DNA of 48,885 bases, from the UHGV virus genome UHGV-0858861; one strand, written 5' to 3'. Positions 301-48,769 of the stretch are shown piece by piece. The first letter of the stretch is position 1, and each line of letters begins with the position of its first letter. This stretch comes from a virus. The translations under genes and the position numbers were made by a program. The notes beneath the pieces are model-generated. The model saw nothing but the letters and a program-made list of their open reading frames with translations. It ran no database searches and had not been told where the DNA came from.

Positions 301-891
301 ATGGCTCTAAAAATCGAATATTTACCAGTCGGTAAGCTGCTCAGATACGCCAAAAATTCACGAACTCATTCAGATGAGCAGGTTGAACAGTTGGTGAACA
401 GTATCCGTGAGTTCGGTTTCACTAATCCTGTGCTGATCGATGAAAAGAATGAACTGATTGCGGGGCATGGTCGGCTTGCAGCAGCCGAAATTCTGGAAAT
501 GGATAAAGTTCCGGCGATTCGGTTGAGTAACCTTTCTGAAAAACAGAAGAAGGCTTACAGGATTGCAGATAACAAGCTGGCCTTAAATGCTGGCTGGGAT
601 ATGCAGCTTCTGGCCGAAGAAGTCAAAGAGTTAATGGATGATGATTTTGATATTGATCTGCTTGGGTTTAATGATGCAGAGCTTGACGAAATGTTAAGCG
701 ATGAACAGCCGCAGGAAGAAGACGATAATTCTTCCCCTGTTGTTCAAATTAAGTACCTGGCTATTGATAAAGAACGTATTCCCGCGACGGATATGGAAAT
801 TGCATTGTTGCTGGATGTTTATCGTCAGTACCACGACGCGCATGAAACGCATGAGGGATTTGTTCAGTATCTTGCTAATGGTTGCAAGTAA
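301..891 (+). CDS. ParB-like nuclease-domain protein (ParB N-terminal/Srx-like fold)
   Basis: 196-aa ORF with a ParB N-terminal-like motif (LIAGHGRLAAA); directly upstream of the terminase genes; paralogue of the ORF at 46037-46660. Confidence 0.65.
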   Translation: MALKIEYLPVGKLLRYAKNSRTHSDEQVEQLVNSIREFGFTNPVLIDEKNELIAGHGRLAAAEILEMDKVPAIRLSNLSEKQKKAYRIADNKLALNAGWDMQLLAEEVKELMDDDFDIDLLGFNDAELDEMLSDEQPQEEDDNSSPVVQIKYLAIDKERIPATDMEIALLLDVYRQYHDAHETHEGFVQYLANGCK

Positions 892-1442
892 TGGCCATCG
901 TCAGTAAGTCAGAGTTTGCCCGCCGGAAAGGTATTTCTCCGGCAATGGTTACGAAGCTCTGTCGTTCCGGTCGCATTCCAGTGCTGAAAAGCGGCAAGCT
1001 GGATTTTGACAAAGCTAGTGCGGCTTATGAAGCGAGCCGACAGGTTGGTCGTGAGGTATCTGCTGAAAACGGAAAAAGAGGGCATGGGATATCTTCGGAA
1101 CAACCAGAGTTACCCGCTGATGATGCCGGATTAGCTGGTGGTACTTCCGGTGTTGCGGTGCAATTCAACAAGGCTAAGACTGCAGAAAAAATTTATCAGG
1201 CAAAGCTGAAACGCCTTGAATTTGAAGAAAAGGAAGGCTCTCTAATCGCTAAAGATGCGGTCAGGGATGATGCATTTCTGGCAGCTAATGAATTGCGTAG
1301 CCGCTTATTTAGTATTGCTCCAAGAGCAGCTCCCCGTTGTGAAGGCAAAACAGCCAGGGAGATCGAACGCATTATTGAAGACGAGATTAATTTTGCGCTT
1401 CAGGCGCTCCAGGAATCCCGATTTATTAAGCAGGAAGAATAA
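882..1442 (+). CDS. putative terminase small subunit
   Basis: ORF immediately upstream of and coupled to the large terminase; N-terminal HTH-like region; true start probably the ATG at 894 (MAIVSKSEF...). Confidence 0.5.
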   Translation: MQVMAIVSKSEFARRKGISPAMVTKLCRSGRIPVLKSGKLDFDKASAAYEASRQVGREVSAENGKRGHGISSEQPELPADDAGLAGGTSGVAVQFNKAKTAEKIYQAKLKRLEFEEKEGSLIAKDAVRDDAFLAANELRSRLFSIAPRAAPRCEGKTAREIERIIEDEINFALQALQESRFIKQEE

Positions 1443-1447
1443 ACCTC

Positions 1448-3304
1448 ATGGGCGAAACAGTATGGAGCACCGCTTTTTTCCGTGCGCTTCGCCCTAAATC
1501 ACGGCTAACTGTTTCCGAATGGGCTGATAAGTATCGTCATGTAGCGCCGGGAACGTCTCCAGAGCCAGGGCCGTGGCGTACAAGCCGAGTGCCATATTTG
1601 CGTGAACCAATGGATGTTATTGGTGACGCTGATACAGAAACAGTAGTGATGCAATGTAGCTCGCAAATTGGTAAATCCGAATTACAGCTAAATGTTATGG
1701 GTTACTTTGCAGATCAGGAGCCATCTCCTCAGTTGATGATTTATCCAACGGTAGAGGCGGCTGAGGCTTTTTCAAAAGAGCGTATTGATCCGACGTTCAA
1801 ATATTCCCCTGGTTTGAAACACAAGCTGCATGAAGGGAAAGAGGGGCGCGGTGCAGCCAAAAAGTCCAGCACGACTATACGTATGAAGCATTACGCTGGT
1901 GGATATATAGCACTTGTTGGTGCTAATTCCCCAGCAGGTCTTGCATCCAGGCCAATTCGAATACTGTTAGCTGATGAGATTGATCGTTACGGTGTGACGC
2001 AGGAGGGCGACCCACTAAAACTAGGTATTCAGCGTACTACCAACTTTCATAATCGTAAGAAAGTTTTTGTTTCTACTCCTGTTTTGGAGGAAACGAGCAA
2101 AATCCACAAGTGGTTTAAGCTCTCCGATCAGCGTTACTACCATGTTCCTTGCCCATGTTGTGGCACCATGCAGGTGATGAAATGGTCGCAAGTCAGATGG
2201 GATAAGAGCGATTCAGGTGAGGCGTTACCGGAAACGGCCAGATATGAGTGCTGTGAGTGCGGCGGGATTATGCGCGGATCTGGTAAACCAGACGTTGATT
2301 GGTTGGCGAAGGGGGTATGGATAGCTGAACATACTGGAGTTAAAGGTATTGTTGGTTTTCATATTAACAGTCTTTACTCCCCGTGGGTTGCATTGTCAGA
2401 GCTGGTTGAAGAATTTACGGAAGCAACCAGAAACCGCGATAAAAATGGATTAATGGAGTTTATTAACCTTAAGCTGGGTGAGCCATGGAAAGAGGATGCT
2501 AAAGACGATATCGATCCTGAATACTTGTTGCAACGCAGAATAAGGTTTGAAGAGTTTTTACCAGATGATGTTTTATTGTTAAGTGCTGGTGTTGACGTAC
2601 AGGACACGTATTTAGTTTGTGAATTGGTCGGTTGGGGAAAAGGTAAGGAGTCATGGGGGATAGAATATAAAATATTCCCAGGTGATCCCGCACAAGATGT
2701 TGTCTGGAAACAACTTGATGAATACTTACTCCGTAGCTGGTCATTCCGTGACGGTCGAAAATTACAGATTTCTTCCGTTTGTATTGACTCTGGTGGGCAT
2801 TTTACGACAGAGGTATATCGCTTTACTAAGCCGAGAGAATCAAGGCGAATATACTCTATCAGGGGGCGTGGTGGGGTAGGTTTACCATTTATAGGAAAGC
2901 CAAGTAATAATAACCGTGTGGGGGCTATGTTGTTTAATTTGGGGGTTGATGATGGTAAAGGGACCATCATGGCAAGAATTAAACTACATGATCCTGGTCC
3001 TGGTTATATGCATTTCCCATTAGATTCTGACAGAGGATATGATACCGAATACTTTAAAGGATTATTATCAGAGAAAAAAATATTTGAATATAAAAATGGG
3101 CAGACAAAAGAAAAGTGGGTGAAAGTCTACGAGCGTAACGAGCCTCTTGATTGCCGTAACTATGCAACTGCCGCGATGGAAATTCTGAACCCTAATTTTA
3201 ACTGGCTTGCCGAACAGGAAATGCGAGGTAATGTGTATGTGCAGAACTCGTCAGGTATACGTAGAAGACGCCGTAGAGTTATAAGTAAAGGCGTAACAAT
3301 ATAG
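1448..3304 (+). CDS. terminase large subunit (lambda gpA-like)
   Basis: 618-aa ORF; size, position before gpW-like and portal genes, and overall similarity pattern to lambda gpA-family terminases. Confidence 0.8.
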   Translation: MGETVWSTAFFRALRPKSRLTVSEWADKYRHVAPGTSPEPGPWRTSRVPYLREPMDVIGDADTETVVMQCSSQIGKSELQLNVMGYFADQEPSPQLMIYPTVEAAEAFSKERIDPTFKYSPGLKHKLHEGKEGRGAAKKSSTTIRMKHYAGGYIALVGANSPAGLASRPIRILLADEIDRYGVTQEGDPLKLGIQRTTNFHNRKKVFVSTPVLEETSKIHKWFKLSDQRYYHVPCPCCGTMQVMKWSQVRWDKSDSGEALPETARYECCECGGIMRGSGKPDVDWLAKGVWIAEHTGVKGIVGFHINSLYSPWVALSELVEEFTEATRNRDKNGLMEFINLKLGEPWKEDAKDDIDPEYLLQRRIRFEEFLPDDVLLLSAGVDVQDTYLVCELVGWGKGKESWGIEYKIFPGDPAQDVVWKQLDEYLLRSWSFRDGRKLQISSVCIDSGGHFTTEVYRFTKPRESRRIYSIRGRGGVGLPFIGKPSNNNRVGAMLFNLGVDDGKGTIMARIKLHDPGPGYMHFPLDSDRGYDTEYFKGLLSEKKIFEYKNGQTKEKWVKVYERNEPLDCRNYATAAMEILNPNFNWLAEQEMRGNVYVQNSSGIRRRRRRVISKGVTI

Positions 3305-20511: not shown

Positions 20512-21113
20512 TGAATAAAGCTGTATTAAATAACGAACTCATTGCCATAAAAGCGGGAGATATTACCGTTTATAATTATGATGGTGAAACGAGGGAATAT
20601 ATTTCCACATCAACCGAATATCTTGCTGTCGGCGTCAGTATCCCGGCATGTTCTTGTCTGGGGGCACCTGGTACACATAAAACTGGTTATGCAATCTGCC
20701 GCTCTGTGGATTTAAATTCATGGGAATATGTACCAGACCATCGCGGTGAAATCGTCTATAGCACCGAAACGGGAGATGCCAAAGAAATCACATCTCCGGG
20801 TGATTACCCTGAAAATACAACCACTATCGCCCCGTTAACGCCATACGATAAATGGGATGGTGAGAAATGGGTGACCGATACTGAGGCACAGCATAGCGCC
20901 GCAGTCGAAGCGGCAGAAGCACAGCGCCAGTCGCTGATTGATGCTGCAATGGCTTCCATCAGTCTGATTCAGCTGAAATTACGGGCCGGGCGGAAGCTGA
21001 CGCAGGCAGAAACCACCCGACTTAACGCTGTGCTGGATTACATTGACGCGGTGGAGGCAACAGATACCAGCACCGCGCCTGATGTCATCTGGCCTGAACT
21101 GCCGGAGGCGTAG
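20511..21113 (+). CDS. tail fibre assembly protein (current orientation)
   Basis: 200-aa ORF immediately after the fibre gene, inside the invertible segment. Confidence 0.65.
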   Translation: MNKAVLNNELIAIKAGDITVYNYDGETREYISTSTEYLAVGVSIPACSCLGAPGTHKTGYAICRSVDLNSWEYVPDHRGEIVYSTETGDAKEITSPGDYPENTTTIAPLTPYDKWDGEKWVTDTEAQHSAAVEAAEAQRQSLIDAAMASISLIQLKLRAGRKLTQAETTRLNAVLDYIDAVEATDTSTAPDVIWPELPEA

Positions 21114-21531
21114 GCCAGACGGGATTTGATGTATCAACGCGCATCAGCAAGACCCGGTATTTTTTCCATTCAGACAACGCGGCGGTTTCTTCTGCCGTCG
21201 CAATTTCCGCATCAAAAGCATCCTGTCTCCAGACTATTTCCTTATCAGCCATAGAACGCAATACCGTTCTTTTCTGTTCAGCCTGAATAATCTGTTGTTC
21301 AGCGGAGAGTGGCGGGATATCAATCCACGCAGGATTACCATCTTTGTCAGCCCCCAGCGTTTTACCTTCTGGTGCTACGCCTGTGTAAATTGCCATTGTT
21401 TCATCATCAACATCAACGCCATTTTCAGGCCATGAACCGGCGCTGATATATACCTCTTTTAGTGCTTTCGGATAGAAAGAGCCTTTATAAAATTTATTCA
21501 TTCTTAATACCCCAGCGCGATAAAACAACAA
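21085..21531 (-). CDS. alternative tail fibre assembly protein (opposite orientation)
   Basis: 148-aa minus-strand ORF inside the invertible segment, convergent with the plus-strand tfa. Confidence 0.6.
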   Translation of the reverse strand: MLFYRAGVLRMNKFYKGSFYPKALKEVYISAGSWPENGVDVDDETMAIYTGVAPEGKTLGADKDGNPAWIDIPPLSAEQQIIQAEQKRTVLRSMADKEIVWRQDAFDAEIATAEETAALSEWKKYRVLLMRVDTSNPVWPTPPAVQAR

Positions 21532-21960
21532 TCTTCGGTGCCCTCTCCGGATGGCGACCAGTTCTGAATACTGATATGCGTTCTGCTGGCAATACGCACA
21601 TTCATCGCGGCATTGTAGCCAGATGTTCCACGGTTTCCGGTCGCAAATAAGCCTGCATAGGGAAAAGCAAATGGTAAGGCATATCCAGCATCAGCTCCCT
21701 TTTGTGTTGCCACCGTTCCCCACTGCAACATAAGTTTCACCGGGTTTCCTGTCGTCGCAATGCATGGAATGTAGATGTAGCCATTCCCTGACATCATTGA
21801 CCTGAAGCTGTCTAAATCCAGTAACTTCGAGGCATTATCTGCTCCAACATCTCGTGTTGCGGCGGTCCCTAACTGGAGCGCATTTCGGAAGGCTGATACA
21901 TCAGAAATATCAGCTCCATTAGCCGATTTCTGCATAGCTCCGGAGGCTTTATTTATCGTT
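21504..21960 (-). CDS. alternative tail fibre C-terminal cassette (promoterless, used after inversion)
   Basis: Minus-strand ORF (track 21504-22013) that passes through the right inverted repeat; lacks an own start inside the segment; Gly/Ala-rich fibre-tip-like sequence. Confidence 0.55.
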
Positions 21961-22034
21961 TCTCCCAAACCAACGTTTAAGAAAATGCAGAGATTACGGC
22001 TAACTGGCATCATCCCCGGTTTTTATTCAGGGGG

Positions 22035-22595
22035 ATGCTCATGCTTATTGGCTATGTACGCGTGTCAACAAATGACCAGAACACGGAATTGCAGCGTAAC
22101 GCGCTGGAGTGCGCAGGATGTGAACTGATTTTTGAAGATAAAATCAGCGGAACGAAATCAGCCAGACCGGGATTGAAAAAACTGCTCAGAACGCTATCAG
22201 AAGGAGATACGCTGGTTGTCTGGAAGCTGGACCGAATGGGGCGTTCCCTGATTCATCTTGTTGATTTACTTAACCATTTTTTATCAAACAACATTGAGTT
22301 TATTTCGATTACGGAAGGGATAAAAATTAGCACTTCAATTGGCCGCTTTGCCTACACGATGCTGAGTGCAGTCGCAGAGATGGAGCGGGAAAATATGATT
22401 GAAAGAACGCGTGCAGGATTGGCGGTGGCAAGGGCTAACGGCAGGATAGGAGGACGCCGCTCAAAGCTGGCACCAGAGCAATGGGAACAGATCGGAAGAC
22501 TTATTGCGAATGGTGTTTCACGTAAGCGGATAGCGATTATCTTCGATGTTACCTTATCCACGCTTTACCGCAGGTTTCCGGCTGGGAATCATTGA
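22035..22595 (+). CDS. serine DNA invertase (Gin/Hin/Cin/Pin family)
   Basis: 186-aa ORF with the resolvase/invertase N-terminal catalytic region (IGYVRVSTNDQN...) and C-terminal HTH; adjacent to the inverted repeat; probable start at 22041. Confidence 0.85.
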   Translation: MLMLIGYVRVSTNDQNTELQRNALECAGCELIFEDKISGTKSARPGLKKLLRTLSEGDTLVVWKLDRMGRSLIHLVDLLNHFLSNNIEFISITEGIKISTSIGRFAYTMLSAVAEMERENMIERTRAGLAVARANGRIGGRRSKLAPEQWEQIGRLIANGVSRKRIAIIFDVTLSTLYRRFPAGNH

Positions 22596-22740: not shown

Positions 22741-22782
22741 TATGATTGTGGGTGTCTGGTTGGAAACTGACCAGATATGGAA

Positions 22783-22900
22783 ACAAAAAGCCCGCAGATA
22801 AATCTGCGGGCTTCTTGCGACATCCACGGAAAACCAACAACAACAATCCATGGGCGCCTCGACAACTCCCATTATACGTTGGTTTTCCGTGGACGCAAGA
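22783..22900 (-). ncRNA. candidate CopA-like antisense RNA / structured repA leader
   Basis: Upstream of the probable repA start: hairpin AAGCCCGCAG-ATAAAT-CTGCGGGCTT (22791-22816), which on the minus strand would be followed by a T-run, and 15-bp inverted repeat CCACGGAAAACCAAC / GTTGGTTTTCCGTGG (22825-22839 / 22879-22893). Confidence 0.3.
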
Positions 22901-22908
22901 GCGAACAT

Positions 22909-23757
22909 ATGGATAGACCAATGCCGTCTCTACGTTCCGCTTACGTTTGTAATTTGTCGCCGGAGTTCCAGCCTCCAAAGCACCATACGCACAAGCTGCC
23001 GCTAGTGTTATCTGATGCTTTACAGCGCATTAATGGTCGTGATCTTACGTGTGAGGTTGCGTTCTACGTTAATCAGCCGTCAGAGCGGAAGCGCCGGATA
23101 AACGAGCATCGTCGTCGGGCGATTAATGCTGTGATTGCTGCGATTTTGCACCATGTAAACATCATTTCTAAGCGGGTTCTGGCCAGTGCTGAGGCGTTGG
23201 CTGATTTTTGCGGCCTGTCTACCGTATCCGAAGCTGGGAACAAGTCTATAACACGCTGTACAAGGGCGTTGTCGCAACTGAAAGCGTTAGGTTTTATTGA
23301 TTATGAACGTCGCTGGGATCGGGTGAATAAACAGTATTGGCCAGCGAAAATAGAGATTCGTGATCAACTGCTGGAAACCGTTGGTATTACTGAACAAGCA
23401 TGGAGACGTGCGGTTAGCCAGAAACTTAATTACTTCAATGCGAAGAATAGCGAACGGCTTAAAAAAGCGATAACGGAGGCTGATTATAAGCGTATTGTTA
23501 TTCAGGAGCAGATGGAGAATGTATGGCGTCAGAGGAAGACAGCCAGAGAGATAAAGGCAAAACAGAAAGCAGCGGAGAGAGCTGCGCGTCTTGTTCAGGA
23601 AAAGGGAGAGGCCGAACTTCGTCATCAAATCACTAGAGAGGTTAGCCAGGAATTTGCTGATGGCATGTATCCTGGTGCTGACCTTGCATATTTACGATCC
23701 CTCGTTGAGCAGCGTTATAACAGGTTAAGAAAGACCAGGAAATCACTCCAACATTAA
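22909..23757 (+). CDS. repA: plasmid replication initiator RepA (IncFII RepA1-like)
   Basis: ORF (track 22777-23757; probable start ATG 22909 after the structured leader) with RepA1-like central motif (KSITRCTRALSQLKALGFIDYE) and basic C-terminus. Confidence 0.6.
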   Translation: MDRPMPSLRSAYVCNLSPEFQPPKHHTHKLPLVLSDALQRINGRDLTCEVAFYVNQPSERKRRINEHRRRAINAVIAAILHHVNIISKRVLASAEALADFCGLSTVSEAGNKSITRCTRALSQLKALGFIDYERRWDRVNKQYWPAKIEIRDQLLETVGITEQAWRRAVSQKLNYFNAKNSERLKKAITEADYKRIVIQEQMENVWRQRKTAREIKAKQKAAERAARLVQEKGEAELRHQITREVSQEFADGMYPGADLAYLRSLVEQRYNRLRKTRKSLQH

Positions 23758-31177: not shown

Positions 31178-31426
31178 TTACTTCTGGTTGTATTGAGCCT
31201 TGAGTAACTCAAAAGATTTTGTCAGCACTTCTTTCAATGACATATCCATTGAGCTGGCGAACGTTTTGTACTCGCGTTTAAATTCAGGGTCGACGTTAAA
31301 CGCCATTTGTGCCCCACCTGATTTGGTTCTGGTTGGCGTTTCAGTCGGGTCGAAAACCTGCGGTTGTTCGATCGATGGCGGTACGCCTTTGCTGTTCTTC
31401 TTTGGTGGTTTTGATGGTGCGGCCAT
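31178..31426 (-). CDS. parG: ParG-like partition protein (ribbon-helix-helix)
   Basis: 82-aa ORF directly downstream of the ParA-type ATPase; C-terminus resembles the ParG RHH region; unstructured basic N-terminus. Confidence 0.5.
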   Translation of the reverse strand: MAAPSKPPKKNSKGVPPSIEQPQVFDPTETPTRTKSGGAQMAFNVDPEFKREYKTFASSMDMSLKEVLTKSFELLKAQYNQK

Positions 31427-31469
31427 GTGTATCCCCTCTTATATAAATCTATAAAACTATAATTATATA

Positions 31470-32138
31470 TTACGCGGCAGTAGTCAGAGCCTCAAGCTGG
31501 TTGATAATCCCCTGAATAACGTCGTCTGCCTTTTTGCGTGGCGCAACGTATGAGCACTCAATGAGGCTTAAGCCCTTATCCTGAGCTTTGCTCAGAGCTG
31601 GCTTGTGGGGAATGTACTTATCAACAACAAAGTATGGCGTATTAGCCAGGTACTCTTGGGCTTCAATATAGTCAGCTTCGTTTTCAGCCGCGCCGGAAAA
31701 CACCATGCAAATTTTCTTGATTGGTACACCCTTTTTAACGATGCCGTGAGCAGTGTTAACGGTGGTTTCTAGGTCATCGGTAGAGAATCTGGTTGGCAAA
31801 ATAACCATATCCAGAAATTCAGAGAGCTTCGGTACTGATTCAGATGCGTAGGCACCGCCATCGACGATAACCAGGTCGTATACTTCTGATTCGATGATTT
31901 TCTGGACTTGTGATGGTGTGCCGCACGGCTGCGCCGCGATTGCTGGTTCGATATTGTTGGCCATTCTGCGTTGTACCCAACGCGTTACCGTTCCGTTAAG
32001 CACATCCATATCGATCAGGCATACATTCCAGCCAGCCTTTGCATAAGCAACTGCTAAAGCACGGGCAATTGTTGATTTGGTTACGCCGCCTTTTCCGTTG
32101 AAAATACCTACAGAGATAGTCATTTGTCGAGACTCCAT
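31470..32138 (-). CDS. parA: ParA/ParF-type partition ATPase
   Basis: 222-aa ORF with deviant Walker A (GKGGVTKST). Confidence 0.8.
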   Translation of the reverse strand: MESRQMTISVGIFNGKGGVTKSTIARALAVAYAKAGWNVCLIDMDVLNGTVTRWVQRRMANNIEPAIAAQPCGTPSQVQKIIESEVYDLVIVDGGAYASESVPKLSEFLDMVILPTRFSTDDLETTVNTAHGIVKKGVPIKKICMVFSGAAENEADYIEAQEYLANTPYFVVDKYIPHKPALSKAQDKGLSLIECSYVAPRKKADDVIQGIINQLEALTTAA

Positions 32139-32740: not shown

Positions 32741-33397
32741 TCATAACCAGTTGACAACACTAACTACGCGGCCAAGAACTTTATAACGCTTAAATTCCTC
32801 GTTATTCAGATGCTTAGTGTTCATTTCAGCATCCCTTTCGGTTGACAGCATAACAGCATTGTCACCCGGTATGACTCTACAGTGCCTCAAAACAACCAGG
32901 CCATTTCTGTCTTCAAGGGCATAGATCCCCTCATGAATCTCTGTATCGTCTGTATCAATCAGGACTTGGGAGCCAGGGGATATTGTTGGTGACATTAACT
33001 CATCGTTGCTCTGGAGAACTGACAGAGACGATGGGTTGATGTTCTTGCTTCGTAGAATCTCCTGTTCTATCGCCAGCACTGGCTTTTCTCCGGCGTGCGA
33101 TGCTATGTCATTTTTTATAGCTACAAGCCCAGGAATAACAGGAGCGTTAGTATTCTGGGGTGGGAACGGGTTATCTGTTAAGCACGCGATATAAGGCGCT
33201 GATGCTTTCAGGGCGTGCGCGATTTTCTTGATGGCAGGTATAGATGGTTGTCTTAATCCGGCCTCATAGTTCTGCAAGGTGCTTAAGCCTATTCCAGTGA
33301 CTTGCTGGAGATCTCCGGCAGTCATGCCGGATTGTTTCCGTAGAGTCTGAATGCGCAGACCTATTTCTTTCTTGATGTTCTCGTCGTTGCTTTTCAT
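32741..33397 (-). CDS. CI-like repressor (N-terminal XRE HTH + C-terminal S24/LexA-like peptidase domain)
   Basis: 218-aa ORF; HTH (MTAGDLQQVTGIGLSTLQNYEAG) and C-terminal segment resembling the S24 autocleavage domain; divergent from a Cro-like gene. Confidence 0.7.
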   Translation of the reverse strand: MKSNDENIKKEIGLRIQTLRKQSGMTAGDLQQVTGIGLSTLQNYEAGLRQPSIPAIKKIAHALKASAPYIACLTDNPFPPQNTNAPVIPGLVAIKNDIASHAGEKPVLAIEQEILRSKNINPSSLSVLQSNDELMSPTISPGSQVLIDTDDTEIHEGIYALEDRNGLVVLRHCRVIPGDNAVMLSTERDAEMNTKHLNNEEFKRYKVLGRVVSVVNWL

Positions 33398-41302: not shown

Positions 41303-41698
41303 ATGTCAGCAGAACCAATTTCCGGTACGGCCGTTGCTGCTGGTGGCCTGATGGGTGCCAGCGTTTTTGGTATTGCAACTGGTATTGATTACGGCGTTGT
41401 ATTCGGGGCATTTGCTGGCGCTGTTTTCTATGTTGCTACAGCGGTGAATATTAGCCGTCTCAAGCTGATTGGCTATTTCTTTACATCGTTCATTGTTGGA
41501 GTGATTGGAGCGCCGTTAGTTGGCTCATTTCTTGCCAAATGGACCAGCTACAACGATCGTCCTCTGGATGCGCTTGGTGCGGTTATTGTGGCTGCATTGA
41601 CCATTAAAATCCTCACGTTCGTAAACAGCCAGGATCTCGGTAGCATCTTTGGAATGCTTTCCCGCTTACGTGGAGGGGGTTCAAATGGTAAGCAGTGA
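41303..41698 (+). CDS. holin-like membrane protein
   Basis: 131-aa ORF with multiple hydrophobic helices, first gene of the lysis cluster. Confidence 0.45.
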   Translation: MSAEPISGTAVAAGGLMGASVFGIATGIDYGVVFGAFAGAVFYVATAVNISRLKLIGYFFTSFIVGVIGAPLVGSFLAKWTSYNDRPLDALGAVIVAALTIKILTFVNSQDLGSIFGMLSRLRGGGSNGKQ

Positions 41699-41981
41699 CC
41701 CGTCAGCACTGATTAATGCGGTGCTTTGCACAGTAATAGTAATGGCGCTGATGCTTTATCGACGGAAAGACTCCAGGCATCGTCCATTTGTTTCCTTTCT
41801 GGCTTATATCTACGTCATTGTATACGCCAATGTTCCCTTCCGTTATGTGTTCGGTCTTTATCAAGAATCCCACTGGCTGGTGGTTATTGGAAATCTGATT
41901 ATCTGCATCGTTGTTCTGTATTTCAGGGGCAATCTGGCGCGGATAGTTGACGCATTAGGATTTAATCATGACCAAAGATGA
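41649..41981 (+). CDS. second small membrane protein (holin/antiholin-like)
   Basis: ORF (probable start 41688) with 2-3 TM segments, overlapping the endolysin start. Confidence 0.4.
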   Translation: MECFPAYVEGVQMVSSDPSALINAVLCTVIVMALMLYRRKDSRHRPFVSFLAYIYVIVYANVPFRYVFGLYQESHWLVVIGNLIICIVVLYFRGNLARIVDALGFNHDQR

Positions 41982-42510
41982 GATTTTTAACAGCATTCTT
42001 GGAAAAGAGGGCGGTTATGTTGATCACCCTGACGACAAGGGAGGCCCAACAATGTGGGGCATCACTCAGAATACTGCCCGTGCTCACGGATACCGTGGCG
42101 ATATGCGAGATCTGACGCGAGAACAGGCTCTGATGATTCTTGAAGGTGATTATTGGTATGGGCCTCGTTTTGACCAGGTGGCGCAATTTTCCCCTGATAT
42201 TGCGGCTGAGATGTGCGATACGGGCGTCAACATGGGGCCGACTGTGGCTACGAAGATGCTTCAACGTTGGCTGAATGTTTTCAACCGTGGCGGGAAGTTG
42301 TATCCAGATATGGATGTGGATGGGCGAATCGGCCCGCGCACCATTGCGGCATTACGTGCTTATCTTGGGAATCGGGGAAAAGACGGCGAACGGGTAATGC
42401 TGACGGCCCTTAACTGTACGCAGGGCGACCGTTATCTGGACCTGGCGGAGAAACGCGAAGCAAATGAGTCGTTTGTCTATGGCTGGATGAAAGAGCGAGT
42501 GGTGGTATGA
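41968..42510 (+). CDS. endolysin (GH108-like catalytic domain + peptidoglycan-binding domain)
   Basis: 180-aa ORF; N-terminal GKEGGYVDHPDDKGGPTMWGIT motif typical of GH108 lysozymes. Confidence 0.75.
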   Translation: MTKDEIFNSILGKEGGYVDHPDDKGGPTMWGITQNTARAHGYRGDMRDLTREQALMILEGDYWYGPRFDQVAQFSPDIAAEMCDTGVNMGPTVATKMLQRWLNVFNRGGKLYPDMDVDGRIGPRTIAALRAYLGNRGKDGERVMLTALNCTQGDRYLDLAEKREANESFVYGWMKERVVV

Positions 42511-42785
42511 CTGGTTTGAAAGCCGTTTTGTCATTTATCGGCACCATTATATTGGTTGCATTCGGCGCATTTGGTTTTGGTCGTATGAAGGGGCGAGAAA
42601 AGGCCGAAGATGAAGCTGAAAAGCAGCGCATTAATGAGAATGCAGCCGCCGTAAAAGCCACTGCGGAGCGGCGTATAGAAGTGACAAAAGAGGTGGGGAA
42701 TGTACAGCAGAGTGTTAACCATATGGCTGATGACGATGTTGATCGCGAGCTGCGGGAGTCGTGGAAGCGTCCCGGTGGTGGTTGA
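42507..42785 (+). CDS. i-spanin (Rz-like)
   Basis: 92-aa ORF with N-terminal TM helix and charged coiled-coil region, directly after endolysin. Confidence 0.55.
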   Translation: MTGLKAVLSFIGTIILVAFGAFGFGRMKGREKAEDEAEKQRINENAAAVKATAERRIEVTKEVGNVQQSVNHMADDDVDRELRESWKRPGGG

Positions 42786-43078: not shown

Positions 43079-43154
43079 GGCCCCTTAGCTCAGTGGTTAG
43101 AGCAGGCGACTCATAATCGCACGGTCATCGGTTCAAATCCGGTAGGGGCCACCA
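43079..43154 (+). tRNA. tRNA with CAU anticodon (elongator-type; ileX-like tRNA-Ile2 or tRNA-Met)
   Basis: 76-nt cloverleaf folded by hand: 7-bp acceptor stem (GGCCCCT/AGGGGCC), D-arm GCTCAGTGGTTAGAGC, anticodon loop CTCATAA, T-loop TTCAAAT, discriminator A and encoded CCA; 1:72 G-C pair excludes initiator type. Confidence 0.85.
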
Positions 43155-43462: not shown

Positions 43463-44050
43463 ATGGAGGCAATTGCATTGTTTAATCTGATTTATGCAGA
43501 TCCCCCCTGGGAATACAAAGACAAGTGTAAGGATGGGAATCGTGGCGCTGGTTTTAAGTATCCAACGATGAAAGCTGAGGAGATTGCTCGTATTCCTGTC
43601 TGGCAGCTTGCTAATCCTGAATCGTGTTTGTTGGCCATGTGGTGGGTTCCGACTCAGCCAGAAGAAGCGTTGCTGGTGGTGAAAGCATGGGGATTCAGGC
43701 TGATGACCATGAAGGGCTTCACATGGAACAAATGTGGTAGCCGACAACCAGATAAGCTGGTGATGGGGATGGGGCATATGACTCGTGCAAACAGTGAAGA
43801 TTGCTTGTTTGCAGTGAAAGGCAAACTACCGACACGTCTTGATGCGGGGATCATTCAGTCGTTTACATCGCCTCGTCTGGAGCATTCTCGGAAGCCTGAT
43901 GTGGTCCGTGACAAGCTGGTAAGGCTGTTAGGTGATGTTCCTCGTATTGAGCTGTTTGCTCGCGGTGATTTACCTGATGGCTGGCATGGCTGGGGCAACC
44001 AGTGCAATGGAGGTATCCAATTGCATGATGCTCTCTGGCAAGTGTCATAG
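43463..44050 (+). CDS. MT-A70-family DNA N6-adenine methyltransferase
   Basis: 195-aa ORF with the catalytic DPPW motif (IYADPPWEY). Confidence 0.75.
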   Translation: MEAIALFNLIYADPPWEYKDKCKDGNRGAGFKYPTMKAEEIARIPVWQLANPESCLLAMWWVPTQPEEALLVVKAWGFRLMTMKGFTWNKCGSRQPDKLVMGMGHMTRANSEDCLFAVKGKLPTRLDAGIIQSFTSPRLEHSRKPDVVRDKLVRLLGDVPRIELFARGDLPDGWHGWGNQCNGGIQLHDALWQVS

Positions 44051-45193: not shown

Positions 45194-45342
45194 ATGGTGT
45201 TGGCATTTTTCTGATGGTTGTGGCCGTGTGTTTTTGTATCTCGCTGGTGGTTATCGCTGGTGTCCTGTGGCGCATCTTAGTGGCGCAGAGAGCTTTTCGG
45301 CGTAAGCGGGAGCAATTGCGCCTTGATTTCTATCGAAAGTAA
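45190..45342 (+). CDS. small membrane protein (50 aa, below the ORF-track cutoff)
   Basis: MNGVGIFLMVVAVCFCISLVVIAGVLWRIL... followed by terminator hairpin at 45351-45378. Confidence 0.25.
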   Translation: MNGVGIFLMVVAVCFCISLVVIAGVLWRILVAQRAFRRKREQLRLDFYRK

Positions 45343-45802
45343 CTCTTACAGCCTCGCGGTGTCGCGGGGCTTTTTATTTTCAGGTGATGTTATGGAAAAG
45401 AAAGAAGATAAACCGATTGCCATTGGTGCAGATGCTGTTCCGTTTAAGTTTGAATTATCCCAACTGGTAACAATGCGTATCAGTGACGAATGGGGAGAAG
45501 TTAAAGCCCGTGCTCAGTATGCAAATGGCGAAAACCAGTATCTGATTCACTATCAGGCGGCTGATGGCCGTGCTACCACAGAGTGGTTCGGTGAGTCGAT
45601 GCTGATTGCGATGGAAGATGATCGTTATCCTGGCTGCCCTGTTTTTGCCTGTGTTGATTTGCCAGAAGGCGCGGTACTTGAAGACGACAAAGAAGAATGC
45701 TCGTCTGATGGCGAACTTGTCATTACTGGAATCGTTGATGGTAAGCCGGAATACTCTCGTATTGAGGTAAATAACGGCTGCCTCCGTTTGATCCCTGCGT
45801 AA
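45323..45802 (+). CDS. hypothetical protein
   Basis: ORF (probable start 45392, MEKKEDKP...); terminator-like hairpin CATTAACTCCA...TGGAGTTAATG at 45865-45894 downstream. Confidence 0.35.
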   Translation: MISIESNSYSLAVSRGFLFSGDVMEKKEDKPIAIGADAVPFKFELSQLVTMRISDEWGEVKARAQYANGENQYLIHYQAADGRATTEWFGESMLIAMEDDRYPGCPVFACVDLPEGAVLEDDKEECSSDGELVITGIVDGKPEYSRIEVNNGCLRLIPA

Positions 45803-46036
45803 CGCATTACAGCAGCTCTTGTGCCTATCAGGGGCTGCGATAATGCGCAAACCAAAGCTGCCTCATTAACTCCAGCTCGCTGTGGAGTTAATGCTGGTGG
45901 CTTTTTTATTACTGGAAGGTGGGCGACCGCCGTCAGTTGCGACCTGACGACAGTCATTCATACCCACAGGGTGCCGTGGATACAAACCGAGGCCCACTTG
46001 CTTGCACAAGCGAGGGGATTTTAGCGGATAAACGGC

Positions 46037-46660
46037 ATGACAAAACATCTTAATGTGGTTTCTTTACCACTTTCTGTGTTGATTGGTTATGAAAAGAACG
46101 CTCGCACACACTCCGTGGAGCAGGTAGATCAGATTGTTGCCAGCATACAGGAGTACGGATGGACTAATCCGATCCTGATAGACGAGAACAACGTTGTAAT
46201 TGCTGGTCATGGTCGAATTGCTGCGGCCACTCAGTTGGGGATGGATGACGTTCCCTGCATTGTTCTGGAAGGGCTAACGGAGAATCAGAAGAAGGCATAT
46301 CGTCTGGCCGACAACCGTATTCCGCTGAATGCTGGTTGGGATGAAGAGTTGTTAAGCGCGGAGCTTGCAGATCTTGCGGCCGATGATTTTGCTCTGGACT
46401 CAATTGGTTTTACTCAGCGCGAACTGGATAACTTATTGAGTGCGGCGGTCTACGATGACACAGAGGGTATGGATATCCCATTTGAGAAGGATGAGGCCAA
46501 ATCAGGCGTAAAAGTTCAGTACCTGTCATTTGGAGGTCATAAAATCCCGGCAACGGATGAGGAAGCGGATCGTTTTGACTGCGCGGTGTCTCGTTATGTT
46601 GATGATAATGGCAGCTATATCGGATTTGTATCCGCATTGCTGGCTGGGGAGGTGTGCTGA
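46037..46660 (+). CDS. ParB-like nuclease-domain protein (paralogue of 301-891)
   Basis: 207-aa ORF sharing the ParB N-terminal-like core (NPILIDENNVVIAGHGRIAAA...QKKAYRLADN...NAGWD) with the ORF at 301. Confidence 0.65.
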   Translation: MTKHLNVVSLPLSVLIGYEKNARTHSVEQVDQIVASIQEYGWTNPILIDENNVVIAGHGRIAAATQLGMDDVPCIVLEGLTENQKKAYRLADNRIPLNAGWDEELLSAELADLAADDFALDSIGFTQRELDNLLSAAVYDDTEGMDIPFEKDEAKSGVKVQYLSFGGHKIPATDEEADRFDCAVSRYVDDNGSYIGFVSALLAGEVC

Positions 46661-48033
46661 TGCTTCACCTCAATTACGACATAACGCACCTACGCGGCGC
46701 GGAATATAACCCGCGTTTTATCGGTGAGGATGATCTTGCGAGGCTGGCAGAAAGCGTCAGGGAGCTGGGGCTTGTGAAGCCATTGATAGTGCGCGGCGAT
46801 TTGCTGGTGGCGGGACACCAAAGGACGAAGGCGCTACGTAAGTTGGGAATAACGCGTGCTGCGGTGTATGTGTTGCCCTGTGAAACGACGGTATACGACG
46901 AAGTACGGTTTAACCAACTGCATAACGGAACGGATTTTGATAGCGGAGATGAGCGTTGCAGGGTGTCCGGTCTGGAAGATAAGCATGGTTTTGTTCAGGT
47001 ATCGGCAAGCCAGATTTCAGGCAATATGCGCGCGAAAATGGCATATGTTCGAAAGAACATAGCGGAACTGGTTATCAAGTATGGTCCGTGGGGTGGTTGT
47101 GTTGCTACGCAGTCTGGCGAGGTTATTCACTGTGCTCAGTATGCATTAGCAGCGAAGATGACGCGCACACCGCTAACGGTGTTTGTGATCCCTGATGTTG
47201 AGAAGGAAAAATACCAAAGTTATCTGAATAAAACTTATGGTGTATTTGAGTATTCTCATCTGGAGAAAACAACATACATCCAGACGTATGCGCAGCTTAT
47301 GCGGTTGCGTAATGGTGGCAGCCTGAAATCAAACCTGTATGAGTCGTTGATCCTCCCGATCATTGCCAAGACGCCAAGAGGAATTGATTTTGGTTCGGGG
47401 CAGGGAGACTACGCGCGAATGCTCAGGGCAAAGGGATATAACCTGCATGATCTCGAGCTTTTCCGCCGTAAGGGCGCTGGAAACACTCTGGATAGGACCG
47501 CAACAAACCGGATGATTGATACGCTGGTGGACGACTTAAAAACGCGAGGGCGTTACGACTACGTGATTTGCGATAGCGTTTTGAACTCGGTCGATAGTGT
47601 CGAGGCTGAATGGTCTGTTCTGACGGTTCTGAAAGGCCTGTGTAAAGCTGGTGGGTCAATATTCTTTTCTGGTCGTAGCCGTGGAGAGCTGGAAACAGTC
47701 CTGAAGCAAACACAAGCGGCGAGTTCCAAAAGCCGGCTTTATTTTATTGATCATAACGGTTTTACCGCGTTGTACCGGAAGGGGCACTGGTTTTACCAGA
47801 AGTTTCACTCTGATGATGAAGTGAAGCAGTTGTGTCGTGTACATGGTTTCAGGATTAAGCGGTCAATATTCAACTGTAAGAGCTGGTATTTGCACGTCAT
47901 TAACGATGATTCCCTTAGTTGGGCGAGTCTGGAGAAAGCTGTTCGTTTTGAGTTTGAGTTGCCGTTGCCTGGTGGTTCAACAATCGGACGATCTGATGAT
48001 GTGCTGGCGGCTTTCCGGCCGTTGATTAAGTAG
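46654..48033 (+). CDS. fusion protein: ParB N-terminal-like domain + class I SAM-dependent methyltransferase domain
   Basis: 459-aa ORF; N-terminal ParB-like segment (PLIVRGDLLVAGHQRTKALRKLG) and C-terminal Rossmann SAM motif (GIDFGSGQGDY); no DPPY/NPPY-type motif seen. Confidence 0.6.
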   Translation: MLMLHLNYDITHLRGAEYNPRFIGEDDLARLAESVRELGLVKPLIVRGDLLVAGHQRTKALRKLGITRAAVYVLPCETTVYDEVRFNQLHNGTDFDSGDERCRVSGLEDKHGFVQVSASQISGNMRAKMAYVRKNIAELVIKYGPWGGCVATQSGEVIHCAQYALAAKMTRTPLTVFVIPDVEKEKYQSYLNKTYGVFEYSHLEKTTYIQTYAQLMRLRNGGSLKSNLYESLILPIIAKTPRGIDFGSGQGDYARMLRAKGYNLHDLELFRRKGAGNTLDRTATNRMIDTLVDDLKTRGRYDYVICDSVLNSVDSVEAEWSVLTVLKGLCKAGGSIFFSGRSRGELETVLKQTQAASSKSRLYFIDHNGFTALYRKGHWFYQKFHSDDEVKQLCRVHGFRIKRSIFNCKSWYLHVINDDSLSWASLEKAVRFEFELPLPGGSTIGRSDDVLAAFRPLIK

Positions 48034-48049: not shown

Positions 48050-48769
48050 GTGGCTGACAGAATTGAGATAAAGATGGATTTTTCTTCTCAGGATATTCAA
48101 CGACAACTCCAGCGCCTTGAAGAACGCGAATTGCCGTTCGCAATGGCGCTTGCGGCAACCAGAACGGCAAAGGCTTCTCAGGCTGCGATTAAGAATGAAA
48201 TTAATCGGGTATTTGACAGGCCCACGCCGTGGATTCAGAACTCTACTTACGTTTTGGCCGCAAAGAAGAGTGATCCTACAGCCATTGTGTATGCTCGTGA
48301 ATGGGGAGGAACGCCAGCCCCTGTAACGTTGACTCCGCAAATCGAAGGTGGCCAACGACAGTACAAACGCTCAGAAGGGGCGCTAAGGGCTGGTGGATAT
48401 TTGCCTAACGGCTGGCAGCTTGCTCCTGGTCCCGGCGCAAAGCTGGACAAATACGGGAATATTTCGCGGGGGCAATTACAGCAGGTCTTATCTGGCCTAA
48501 GAGTTCAGCGAGATGCGCATCAAAATCGCCGTCAGGGCAAGCCTACGGAGTTTTTTGTTGTTCGACCTGGTACAAGTAACCCGCTTCAACCAGGCGTCTG
48601 GCAGCGCGTTGGGCGGCGTCCTACGTTGATCCTTACGTTTATCCAGCAACCTAACTATTCGCAGCGTCTTGATTGGCATGGCGTGGCGCTGCGTGCTGGT
48701 GAGGATGCGTTTGCTGATGAAGTCACAAAGGCTATTGATGACATTCTTTCTAAGACCTTCTCTCGTTAA
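48050..48769 (+). CDS. hypothetical phage protein
   Basis: 239-aa ORF; function not assignable from sequence. Confidence 0.35.
   Translation: MADRIEIKMDFSSQDIQRQLQRLEERELPFAMALAATRTAKASQAAIKNEINRVFDRPTPWIQNSTYVLAAKKSDPTAIVYAREWGGTPAPVTLTPQIEGGQRQYKRSEGALRAGGYLPNGWQLAPGPGAKLDKYGNISRGQLQQVLSGLRVQRDAHQNRRQGKPTEFFVVRPGTSNPLQPGVWQRVGRRPTLILTFIQQPNYSQRLDWHGVALRAGEDAFADEVTKAIDDILSKTFSR

Follow-up and report, generated by a model that had tools for sequence, protein, structure and literature searches.

The ParB-methyltransferase cassette and its proteins

The virus genome UHGV-0858861, analysed here over its whole length of 48,885 nucleotides (the window), encodes two ParB-N-like proteins in overlapping open reading frames (ORFs) at its end (46037–46660 and 46654–48033) and a third beside the terminase genes at its start (301–891), all on the plus strand and all where an initial annotation, made from the sequence alone, had placed them. 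Our subject is the pair at the end, a cassette in which a gene for a short acidic ParB-like protein immediately precedes a gene for a larger protein that joins a ParB-like domain to a class I S-adenosylmethionine (SAM) methyltransferase domain. The fusion architecture is not new, having been catalogued already as phrog_5475, of which the window protein is a further member. What is new here is its near-constant pairing with a short ParB-like protein, the existence of natural three-part fusions and the terminase-proximal position of the cassette across approximately nine bacterial phyla.

The fusion gene (46660..48033, plus strand) encodes 457 amino acids with an isoelectric point (pI) of 9.2, divided into a ParB/Srx nucleotide-binding domain (46660..46938), a highly conserved middle α/β domain (46939..47358, approximately residues 94–233) and a class I, Rossmann-type SAM methyltransferase domain (47359..48033, pI 9.35). 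The ORF can also be read from a GTG at 46654, which yields the 459 residues given in the initial annotation and the numbering used below. The real start is almost certainly the ATG at 46660, to judge from the TGATG in which this codon overlaps the stop of the short ParB gene, the GGGGAGG ribosome-binding site and the identical annotation in public records. Pfam scans detect ParB_N at residues 9–70 (24.3 bits) and Methyltransf_23 at residues 233–400 (32.6 bits, cutoff 27), and residues 3–459 align with positions 1–457 of the 458 in the phrog_5475 profile ('unknown function') at an E-value of 1.6e-265, a collinear, full-length match that establishes membership in this ParB-CTPase plus Methyltransf_23 family. 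The family comprises at least 715 homologous clusters at 90% identity, with nearly all of the matches listed combining ParB_N and Methyltransf_23 in about 460 residues. An exhaustive profile search (E ≤ 1e-30) gave 310 clusters at 50% identity, and most of the 150 cluster representatives listed among them are full-length collinear matches.

The invariance and the absence of motifs were judged over 70 family sequences. The N-terminal domain shows the α/β ParB-N fold and the box I (xPR) and box II (GxxR) pocket motifs of the ParB/Srx superfamily, and its pocket is invariant at AxYNPR (16–21), AGHQR (53–57, ending in the conserved box II arginine, R57) and DExxFNQxHN (82–91). In the middle region G144, Y163, Y195-G196, Q210, A213-Q214 and R217 are invariant. 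The C-terminal domain has the Rossmann-like fold of class I SAM methyltransferases, with motif I (DFGSGQGDY, within GIDFGSGQGDY at residues 243–253), an acidic motif II residue at the end of β2 (E268) and a post-β4 motif, DSVLNS. Invariant here are the SAM-site residues DFGxG (245–249), E268 and D307 and, elsewhere in the domain, N311, S312, R341, D366, W379, Q382 and H385. The identity of the parts is secure. The AlphaFold2 model of the fusion is very confident and compact (predicted local distance difference test 94.7; predicted template modelling score, pTM, 0.91), and no full-length structural relative was found in BFVD. A sequence search of the PDB returned only marginal ParB and methyltransferase matches. 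The middle domain has no recognisable relative and was not detectable as a duplicate of the ParB domain using hhalign.

The first short ParB-like protein (46037..46660, plus strand; 207 amino acids, pI 4.3) starts with a ParB/Srx N-domain whose box II reads AGHGR and continues through a helical segment and an acidic linker to a small domain at the C-terminus. Its Pfam ParB_N score of 24.8 bits lies just below the cutoff of 26.3, and it matches phrog_620 ('ParB-like') at 2.9e-74 and phrog_498 at 9.9e-51. The second (301..891, plus strand; 196 amino acids, pI 4.5; ParB_N 33.7 bits) is encoded directly upstream of the gene for the small terminase subunit TerS (phrog_57), the start of which it overlaps according to the PGAP annotation of plasmid p142_C. 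Its presence beside TerS is confined to the window and its close relatives (loci L009–L014). Both short proteins belong to phrog_620 (about 1e-74), both match the N-terminal 150 residues of phrog_498, a family of ParB-DNA methyltransferase fusions, at about 1e-51, and they share 48% identity over their full length (E 1e-61), which marks them, on this alignment, as true paralogs. The initial annotation had called all three ParB-like genes paralogous and the N-terminal domain of the fusion DNA-binding. The first claim applies to the two short proteins; the ParB domain of the fusion, with only 28–33% identity to them over 50–74 residues, is only a distant relative. As to the second, the domain is ParB-like, namely a nucleotide-binding ParB/Srx N-domain, and the helix-turn-helix (HTH) domain HTH_ParB is not matched. 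The first 135 or so residues of the 301–891 protein, which matches 513 phage records in all, align at 33–58% identity with the N-terminal ends of phage proteins labelled 'adenine-specific DNA methyltransferases'. By these sequence matches, the short ParB type is the one that in phages is usually fused to bona fide DNA methyltransferases. Public records label these ParB-like genes 'chromosome (plasmid) partitioning protein'.

Conservation of the pairing and of the terminase neighborhood

The gene order was followed through 77 viral loci in IMG/VR, using our own ORF calling and a hidden Markov model (HMM) built from the short ParBs. A short ParB-like gene lies upstream of the fusion on the same strand in 62 of the 63 loci that have enough upstream sequence, abutting or overlapping the fusion gene in 55 of them and lying within 800 nucleotides in the other 7. 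An upstream ParB-N gene is likewise present in at least 70 of 74 genomic loci, scanned at one genome per species. Two cluster representatives, P0256 (659 amino acids) and P0260 (658 amino acids), are single polypeptides that contain, in this order, a complete short ParB (HMM positions 11–199), a second ParB-N domain, the middle domain and the methyltransferase domain. As the two are only 42% identical to each other, a single assembly artefact is unlikely, and such natural three-part fusions are a Rosetta-stone argument for joint action of the cassette pair. The short ParB is a near-obligate, conserved partner of the fusion.

The second conserved feature is the position of the cassette, 0.3–3 kb upstream of large terminases that belong to at least four families. 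In 63 viral loci the first large ORF to follow the fusion within 4.5 kb was scanned against Pfam and proved to be a large terminase in at least 47, the assignments being Terminase_6 (22 loci), GpA (21), Terminase_3 (7), TerL_ATPase/nuclease (4) and T7-type (3). Bacteroides phage BS-TP3 has a ParB-like gene, the fusion, TerS and the large terminase gene, TerL, in this order, and two metagenomic contigs match it with different terminases. If the genome is taken to be closed into a circle, as in the plasmid, the ParB-N genes of the window belong to the late region and are flanked by the lysis cassette (41303–42785) and the terminase genes (891..3304, plus strand), the latter of which Pfam, PHROGs and the p142_C annotation identify as TerS and a gpA-type TerL (1448–3304).

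Scanned at one genome per species, the family is found in Enterobacterales, Alphaproteobacteria, Bacillota, Planctomycetota, Myxococcota, Chloroflexota, Kiritimatiellia, Bacteroidota and dozens of Streptomyces. In Streptomyces venezuelae ATCC 10712 (chromosome 5479977–5489317, locus L125) a ParB_N gene, the fusion, three small ORFs and a Terminase_6 TerL follow one another, in what looks like a prophage. A further 40 or so Streptomyces loci (L123–L163) carry the cassette, at about 30% identity to the window, and an HTH_ParB protein is encoded 3 kb upstream of the S. venezuelae cassette. Among isolated phages the fusion is found in only 7 of approximately 50,700 records, which indicates an accessory role rather than a part in the core packaging machinery.

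The element that carries the cassette

The window is in essence a whole genome, 99.4–99.6% identical to Yersinia phages vB_YpM_39/41/44 and to Escherichia coli phage vB_EcoM-613R2. The window region is present in 71 of 5426 complete E. coli genomes, and 75 of the 76 matching places are on plasmids of 47–49 kb. According to the PGAP annotation of p142_C and Pfam scans, it encodes an IncFII-type RepA (22777–23757, plus strand), toxin-antitoxin genes and a full set of myovirus structural proteins, together with a ParA ATPase (31470–32138, minus strand; Pfam CbiA/ParA/MipZ, 'ParA family protein' in PGAP) and a CI-like repressor (32741–33397, minus strand). As RepA, ParA, the repressor and the toxin-antitoxin genes stand alongside the complete myovirus set, the window is a phage-plasmid. 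Its assignment to the pSLy3 group was rejected, because pSLy3 belongs to an SSU5-like group of larger elements. ParA and the small ORF downstream of it (31178–31426, minus strand) likely form the real partition locus (31178..32138), 14 kb from the ParB-N genes. Elsewhere, a gene for a serine invertase of the Hin-like kind (Resolvase plus HTH_7; 22035–22595, plus strand) adjoins oppositely oriented genes for tail-fibre C-termini (21085–22013, minus strand), which suggests that the host range is switched by inversion, as in Mu and P1. Among 20 early and late ORFs of the window scanned against PHROGs, none matched the hypermodification genes DpdA, TET/JBP and glycosyltransferase.

Neighboring genes and DNA sites

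Downstream of the fusion in the window, between it and the putative cos region and far from the tail genes, lies a gene for a basic protein (48050..48769, plus strand; 239 amino acids, pI 10.1) that matches phrog_1924, 'minor tail protein', at 2.5e-97 and has no Pfam or NCBIfam match. The tail label looks doubtful and membership in the module uncertain. The protein occupies this slot only in loci L007–L014 and the window and is specific to this phage-plasmid lineage. Elsewhere the slot is held by an orphan gene of about 145 codons, absent from the window, which directly follows the fusion in 40 of the 77 viral loci (for example L019, L020, L022, L030 and L005:2210–2644). The orphan has no match in Pfam, PHROG or the PDB. 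Its motifs, F.Y.W.K.V.GFD..HCA(R/K)CL.G.Y, Y.CGVS.P..W..N.H and TCRNFQFG, contain HCARC and CGVS and possibly form a metal-binding site, and the protein may be a third component of the cassette.

An MT-A70 family methyltransferase (43463–44050, plus strand; Pfam MT-A70 2.4e-23, phrog_359) is encoded 2 kb from the cassette. The gene is intact in the window and annotated as a frameshifted pseudogene in p142_C (NZ_CP048340.1, 16307–16893), where the cassette is intact. The initial annotation had linked this enzyme with the ParB-methyltransferase protein in a joint function, for which we find no functional link: the gene stands apart from the conserved cassette and, as noted, at least one sister plasmid has only a pseudogene of it. 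A tRNA gene with a CAT anticodon (43079–43154, plus strand), situated between MT-A70 and the lysis cassette, is called tRNA-Met by ARAGORN and GenBank and tRNA-Ile by PGAP in the sister plasmid; given these conflicting calls, it could be a lysidine-dependent tRNA-Ile2.

A strong terminator-like hairpin (45350–45371, plus strand; a 9-bp stem with 7 G-C pairs, and a T-run) is reported as lying upstream of the ORF at 45323–45802. A perfect 11-bp inverted repeat at 45864–45893 (CATTAACTCCA, an 8-nucleotide spacer and TGGAGTTAATG) lies 143 nucleotides upstream of the first short ParB gene and does not recur above chance elsewhere in the window. The repeats of the 557-bp intergenic region next to terS, like those upstream of the cassette, are unremarkable AT-rich sequence and were rejected as parS-like or operator sites. 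Neither the surroundings of the cassette nor the putative cos region yielded a palindrome that recurs or a site resembling parS.

Possible functions of the cassette

We tentatively favor the reading that the cassette provides a methyltransferase, gated by a nucleotide and assisted by its partner, which would modify phage DNA ahead of packaging. That the two proteins form a complex, that their substrate is DNA, what kind of mark they leave and how the phage benefits are what we infer; the steps would be as follows. The small acidic ParB-like protein and the basic ParB-methyltransferase, expressed as a two-protein module of the late operon, would work as a complex, in which the ParB/Srx domain of the fusion would be rigidly joined to the methyltransferase via the family-specific middle domain. 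A nucleotide, probably ATP, in the ParB pockets would gate the engagement of replicated phage DNA late in infection. Since the catalytic motifs of amino and C5 methyltransferases are absent, the methyl mark placed by the enzyme would be outside these standard types. Methylation just before or during packaging would then protect or mark the DNA that enters the capsid.

A DNA function near packaging had already been proposed in the initial annotation, and four lines of evidence lead us to favor it: the partner ParB is of the type normally fused to DNA methyltransferases, the position is terminase-adjacent, the enzyme is basic (pI 9.2; family median 8.8), and the literature contains precedents, among them a short phage ParB-like protein without HTH that activates a neighboring thymine dioxygenase on double-stranded DNA (O'Toole et al., PNAS 2026; PMC13229309). 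Nucleotide binding is likewise supported by published work. In the survey of ParB-CTPase folds by Kaljevic et al. (PNAS 2025; PMC12704722), Methyltransf_23 (PF13489) is preferentially fused in phages and prophages, ATP binding is reported for SAM-methyltransferase fusions, and the fusions are assigned a 'predicted DNA methyltransferase' activity with a possible role in anti-defence. A phage member of the family, uvig_65837_18, was purified in that study; translating its synthetic gene, we find the motifs AGHQRTKA, EVRFNQxHNG, DFGxG, DYVICDxVxNSV and GGxIFxSGR, and it is one of exactly 11 pocket Arg-to-Ala mutant constructs, a number that matches the 11 nucleotide binders.

Several observations weigh against a DNA methyltransferase. 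The DPPY-type motifs, already noted as absent in the initial annotation, which had correctly recognised a Rossmann SAM methyltransferase by GIDFGSGQGDY, are missing from the whole family ([DNS]PP[YFWH] in none of the 70 sequences); the C5-cytosine motif PC[QS] is likewise in none and ENV in 6 of the 70, and the methyltransferase domain has no invariant cysteine. Domain and structure searches, proposed with the initial annotation, confirmed the ParB and methyltransferase domains and returned generic small-molecule and tRNA enzymes as the structures closest to the latter. Pfam detects an HTH or other recognisable DNA-binding domain in neither cassette protein, and the ParB/Srx fold is one that small-molecule kinases (SerK, SbnI, sulfiredoxin) share. 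Cassette-bearing phages often also encode ordinary DNA methyltransferases, by which simple anti-restriction methylation may already be covered. The text of PMC12704722 calls the ATP-binding methyltransferase fusion 'bacterial', and it is the mutant list that names the phage construct.

The missing motifs and DNA-binding domain, the generic structural neighbors and the co-occurring ordinary DNA methyltransferases make a non-DNA substrate a serious rival, which we nonetheless consider somewhat unlikely. The target would be a nucleotide or other small molecule, an RNA (such as tRNA) or a protein (a packaging or host factor), and ParB/Srx would be an ATP-binding regulatory or phosphotransfer domain, for instance of a late anti-defence or host-takeover enzyme. 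The pTM of 0.91 suggests a rigid arrangement of nucleotide pocket and methyltransferase, in line with such an enzyme, and the discussion of PMC12704722 leaves both enzymatic and scaffold roles open. Against a non-DNA target, the partner is of a type characteristically fused to DNA methyltransferases, the fixed position beside terminases of at least four families points to a DNA-related or packaging role, and a protein as basic as the fusion would suit the binding of nucleic acid.

An elaborated form of the DNA reading, unlikely as it stands, is that the cassette is a new DNA-modification machine, in which a heteromeric, nucleotide-gated ParB-like clamp, formed by the short acidic ParB and the ParB domain of the fusion, would load a non-canonical class I methyltransferase onto phage DNA at packaging. 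Its mark would differ from N6-methyladenine, N4-methylcytosine and 5-methylcytosine (6mA, 4mC and 5mC), the methyl group sitting on the backbone, for instance, or on an oxygen or a ring nitrogen, and would shield the phage against the defences of its host. The orphan middle domain would be part of the machine, as would the Cys/His-rich 145-residue orphan that half of the phages encode.

That the ParB-like proteins are packaging accessories, either binders of DNA ends or of pac/cos sites or nicking nucleases that aid the terminase like the HNH proteins of HK97-like phages, is decidedly unlikely. The methyltransferase would then be regulatory, for example marking the packaging site; Dam methylation controls the pac site of P1. 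The cassette does lie immediately upstream of terS/terL, the second short ParB copy of the window abuts the TerS gene, and a prophage of Bacillus cereus encodes, next to TerS, a ParB-methyltransferase fusion that nicks non-specifically (PMC3592412; PMC5512222). However, cos-type (GpA, HK97-like) and headful-type (Terminase_3, Terminase_6) enzymes are accompanied alike, which speaks against dependence on a single packaging chemistry, only 7 of the approximately 50,700 isolated-phage records have the fusion, and the DNA near the cassette and the putative cos region yielded no recurring palindrome or parS-like site.

A role of the ParB-like trio as the centromere-binding part of the partition system, to which the maintenance of the element as a 47–49 kb plasmid in E. 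coli and the public 'partitioning protein' labels might point, is highly improbable and was rejected, because the three proteins score only 16.4, 31.0 and 40.1 bits against TIGR00180 (curated cutoff 58.45), none of them has a Pfam match to HTH_ParB or another HTH, a search near the cassette gave no recurring palindrome, RepA and ParA are encoded separately, with ParA 14 kb away on the opposite strand and followed by its own small ORF, and the cassette also stands beside terminases in chromosomal loci and non-plasmid phages of many phyla.

Phage enzymes fused to nucleotide switches of the ParB fold have been recognised as a class only recently and are almost entirely uncharacterised, and the present family is a large one: 310 clusters at 50% identity, in about nine phyla, nearly always paired with a ParB and tied to packaging genes. 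It is accessible in tractable hosts, in a 48-kb plaque-forming phage-plasmid of E. coli and Yersinia and at a chromosomal locus of the model organism S. venezuelae ATCC 10712. If the substrate is DNA, the cassette would represent a new chemistry or a new mode of targeting of DNA methylation, with a bearing on phage-host conflict and on the interpretation of methylomes; if it is not, this would be the first ParB-fold switch that controls a non-DNA enzyme in a virus. Either way, a family so far known as an entry in a published catalogue would acquire a function.

Relation to known systems

The canonical ParB proteins (Spo0J, Noc, KorB) share with the window proteins the ParB/Srx N-domain fold and motifs like boxes I, II and III. 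They differ in that the window proteins have no HTH, no match to the C-terminal dimerisation domain and no adjacent ParA, and the canonical GERR is replaced by GHQR or GHGR, so that a histidine stands in place of the glutamate of CTP hydrolysis. Another group, the ParB-like nicking nucleases (the ParB domain of Bce_0392, Osa), has metal-dependent DNA nicking or DNase activity as its hallmark.

The phrog_498 fusions, such as the ParB-methylase Bce_0392 of a B. cereus prophage, resemble the window fusion in being phage-borne, in beginning with a GHxR-type ParB-N domain and in often lying beside a terminase. Their catalytic domain is a DPPY-type amino-methyltransferase (PF01555), whereas the window fusion has an unrelated, Methyltransf_23-like domain without DPPY, a divergent ParB-N domain and an extra middle domain, and the phrog_498-like ParB is present in the window as a separate protein.

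With the ParB-CTPase plus Methyltransf_23 family of Kaljevic et al., which is phrog_5475 and is enriched in prophages, the window fusion shares the full-length architecture; it is a member, and nothing separates the two. That catalogue was the sole relevant work on the fusion that a literature search returned. It contributes the entry itself and nucleotide binding and reports neither the partner gene nor the terminase linkage, and these, like the substrate, were in no paper that we found.

A parallel to the pairing, drawn from layout, is the ParB176/5mYOX176 system (PMC13229309). Like the short ParBs of the window, ParB176 consists of a nucleotide-binding domain, a short helical segment, a linker and a C-terminal domain, without HTH; its gene adjoins that of a DNA-modifying enzyme, which needs it for activity on double-stranded DNA, and terminases frequently co-occur with such systems. 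The difference lies in the enzyme: 5mYOX176 is an Fe(II)/2-oxoglutarate dioxygenase without a ParB domain of its own, whereas that of the window is a methyltransferase that carries one.

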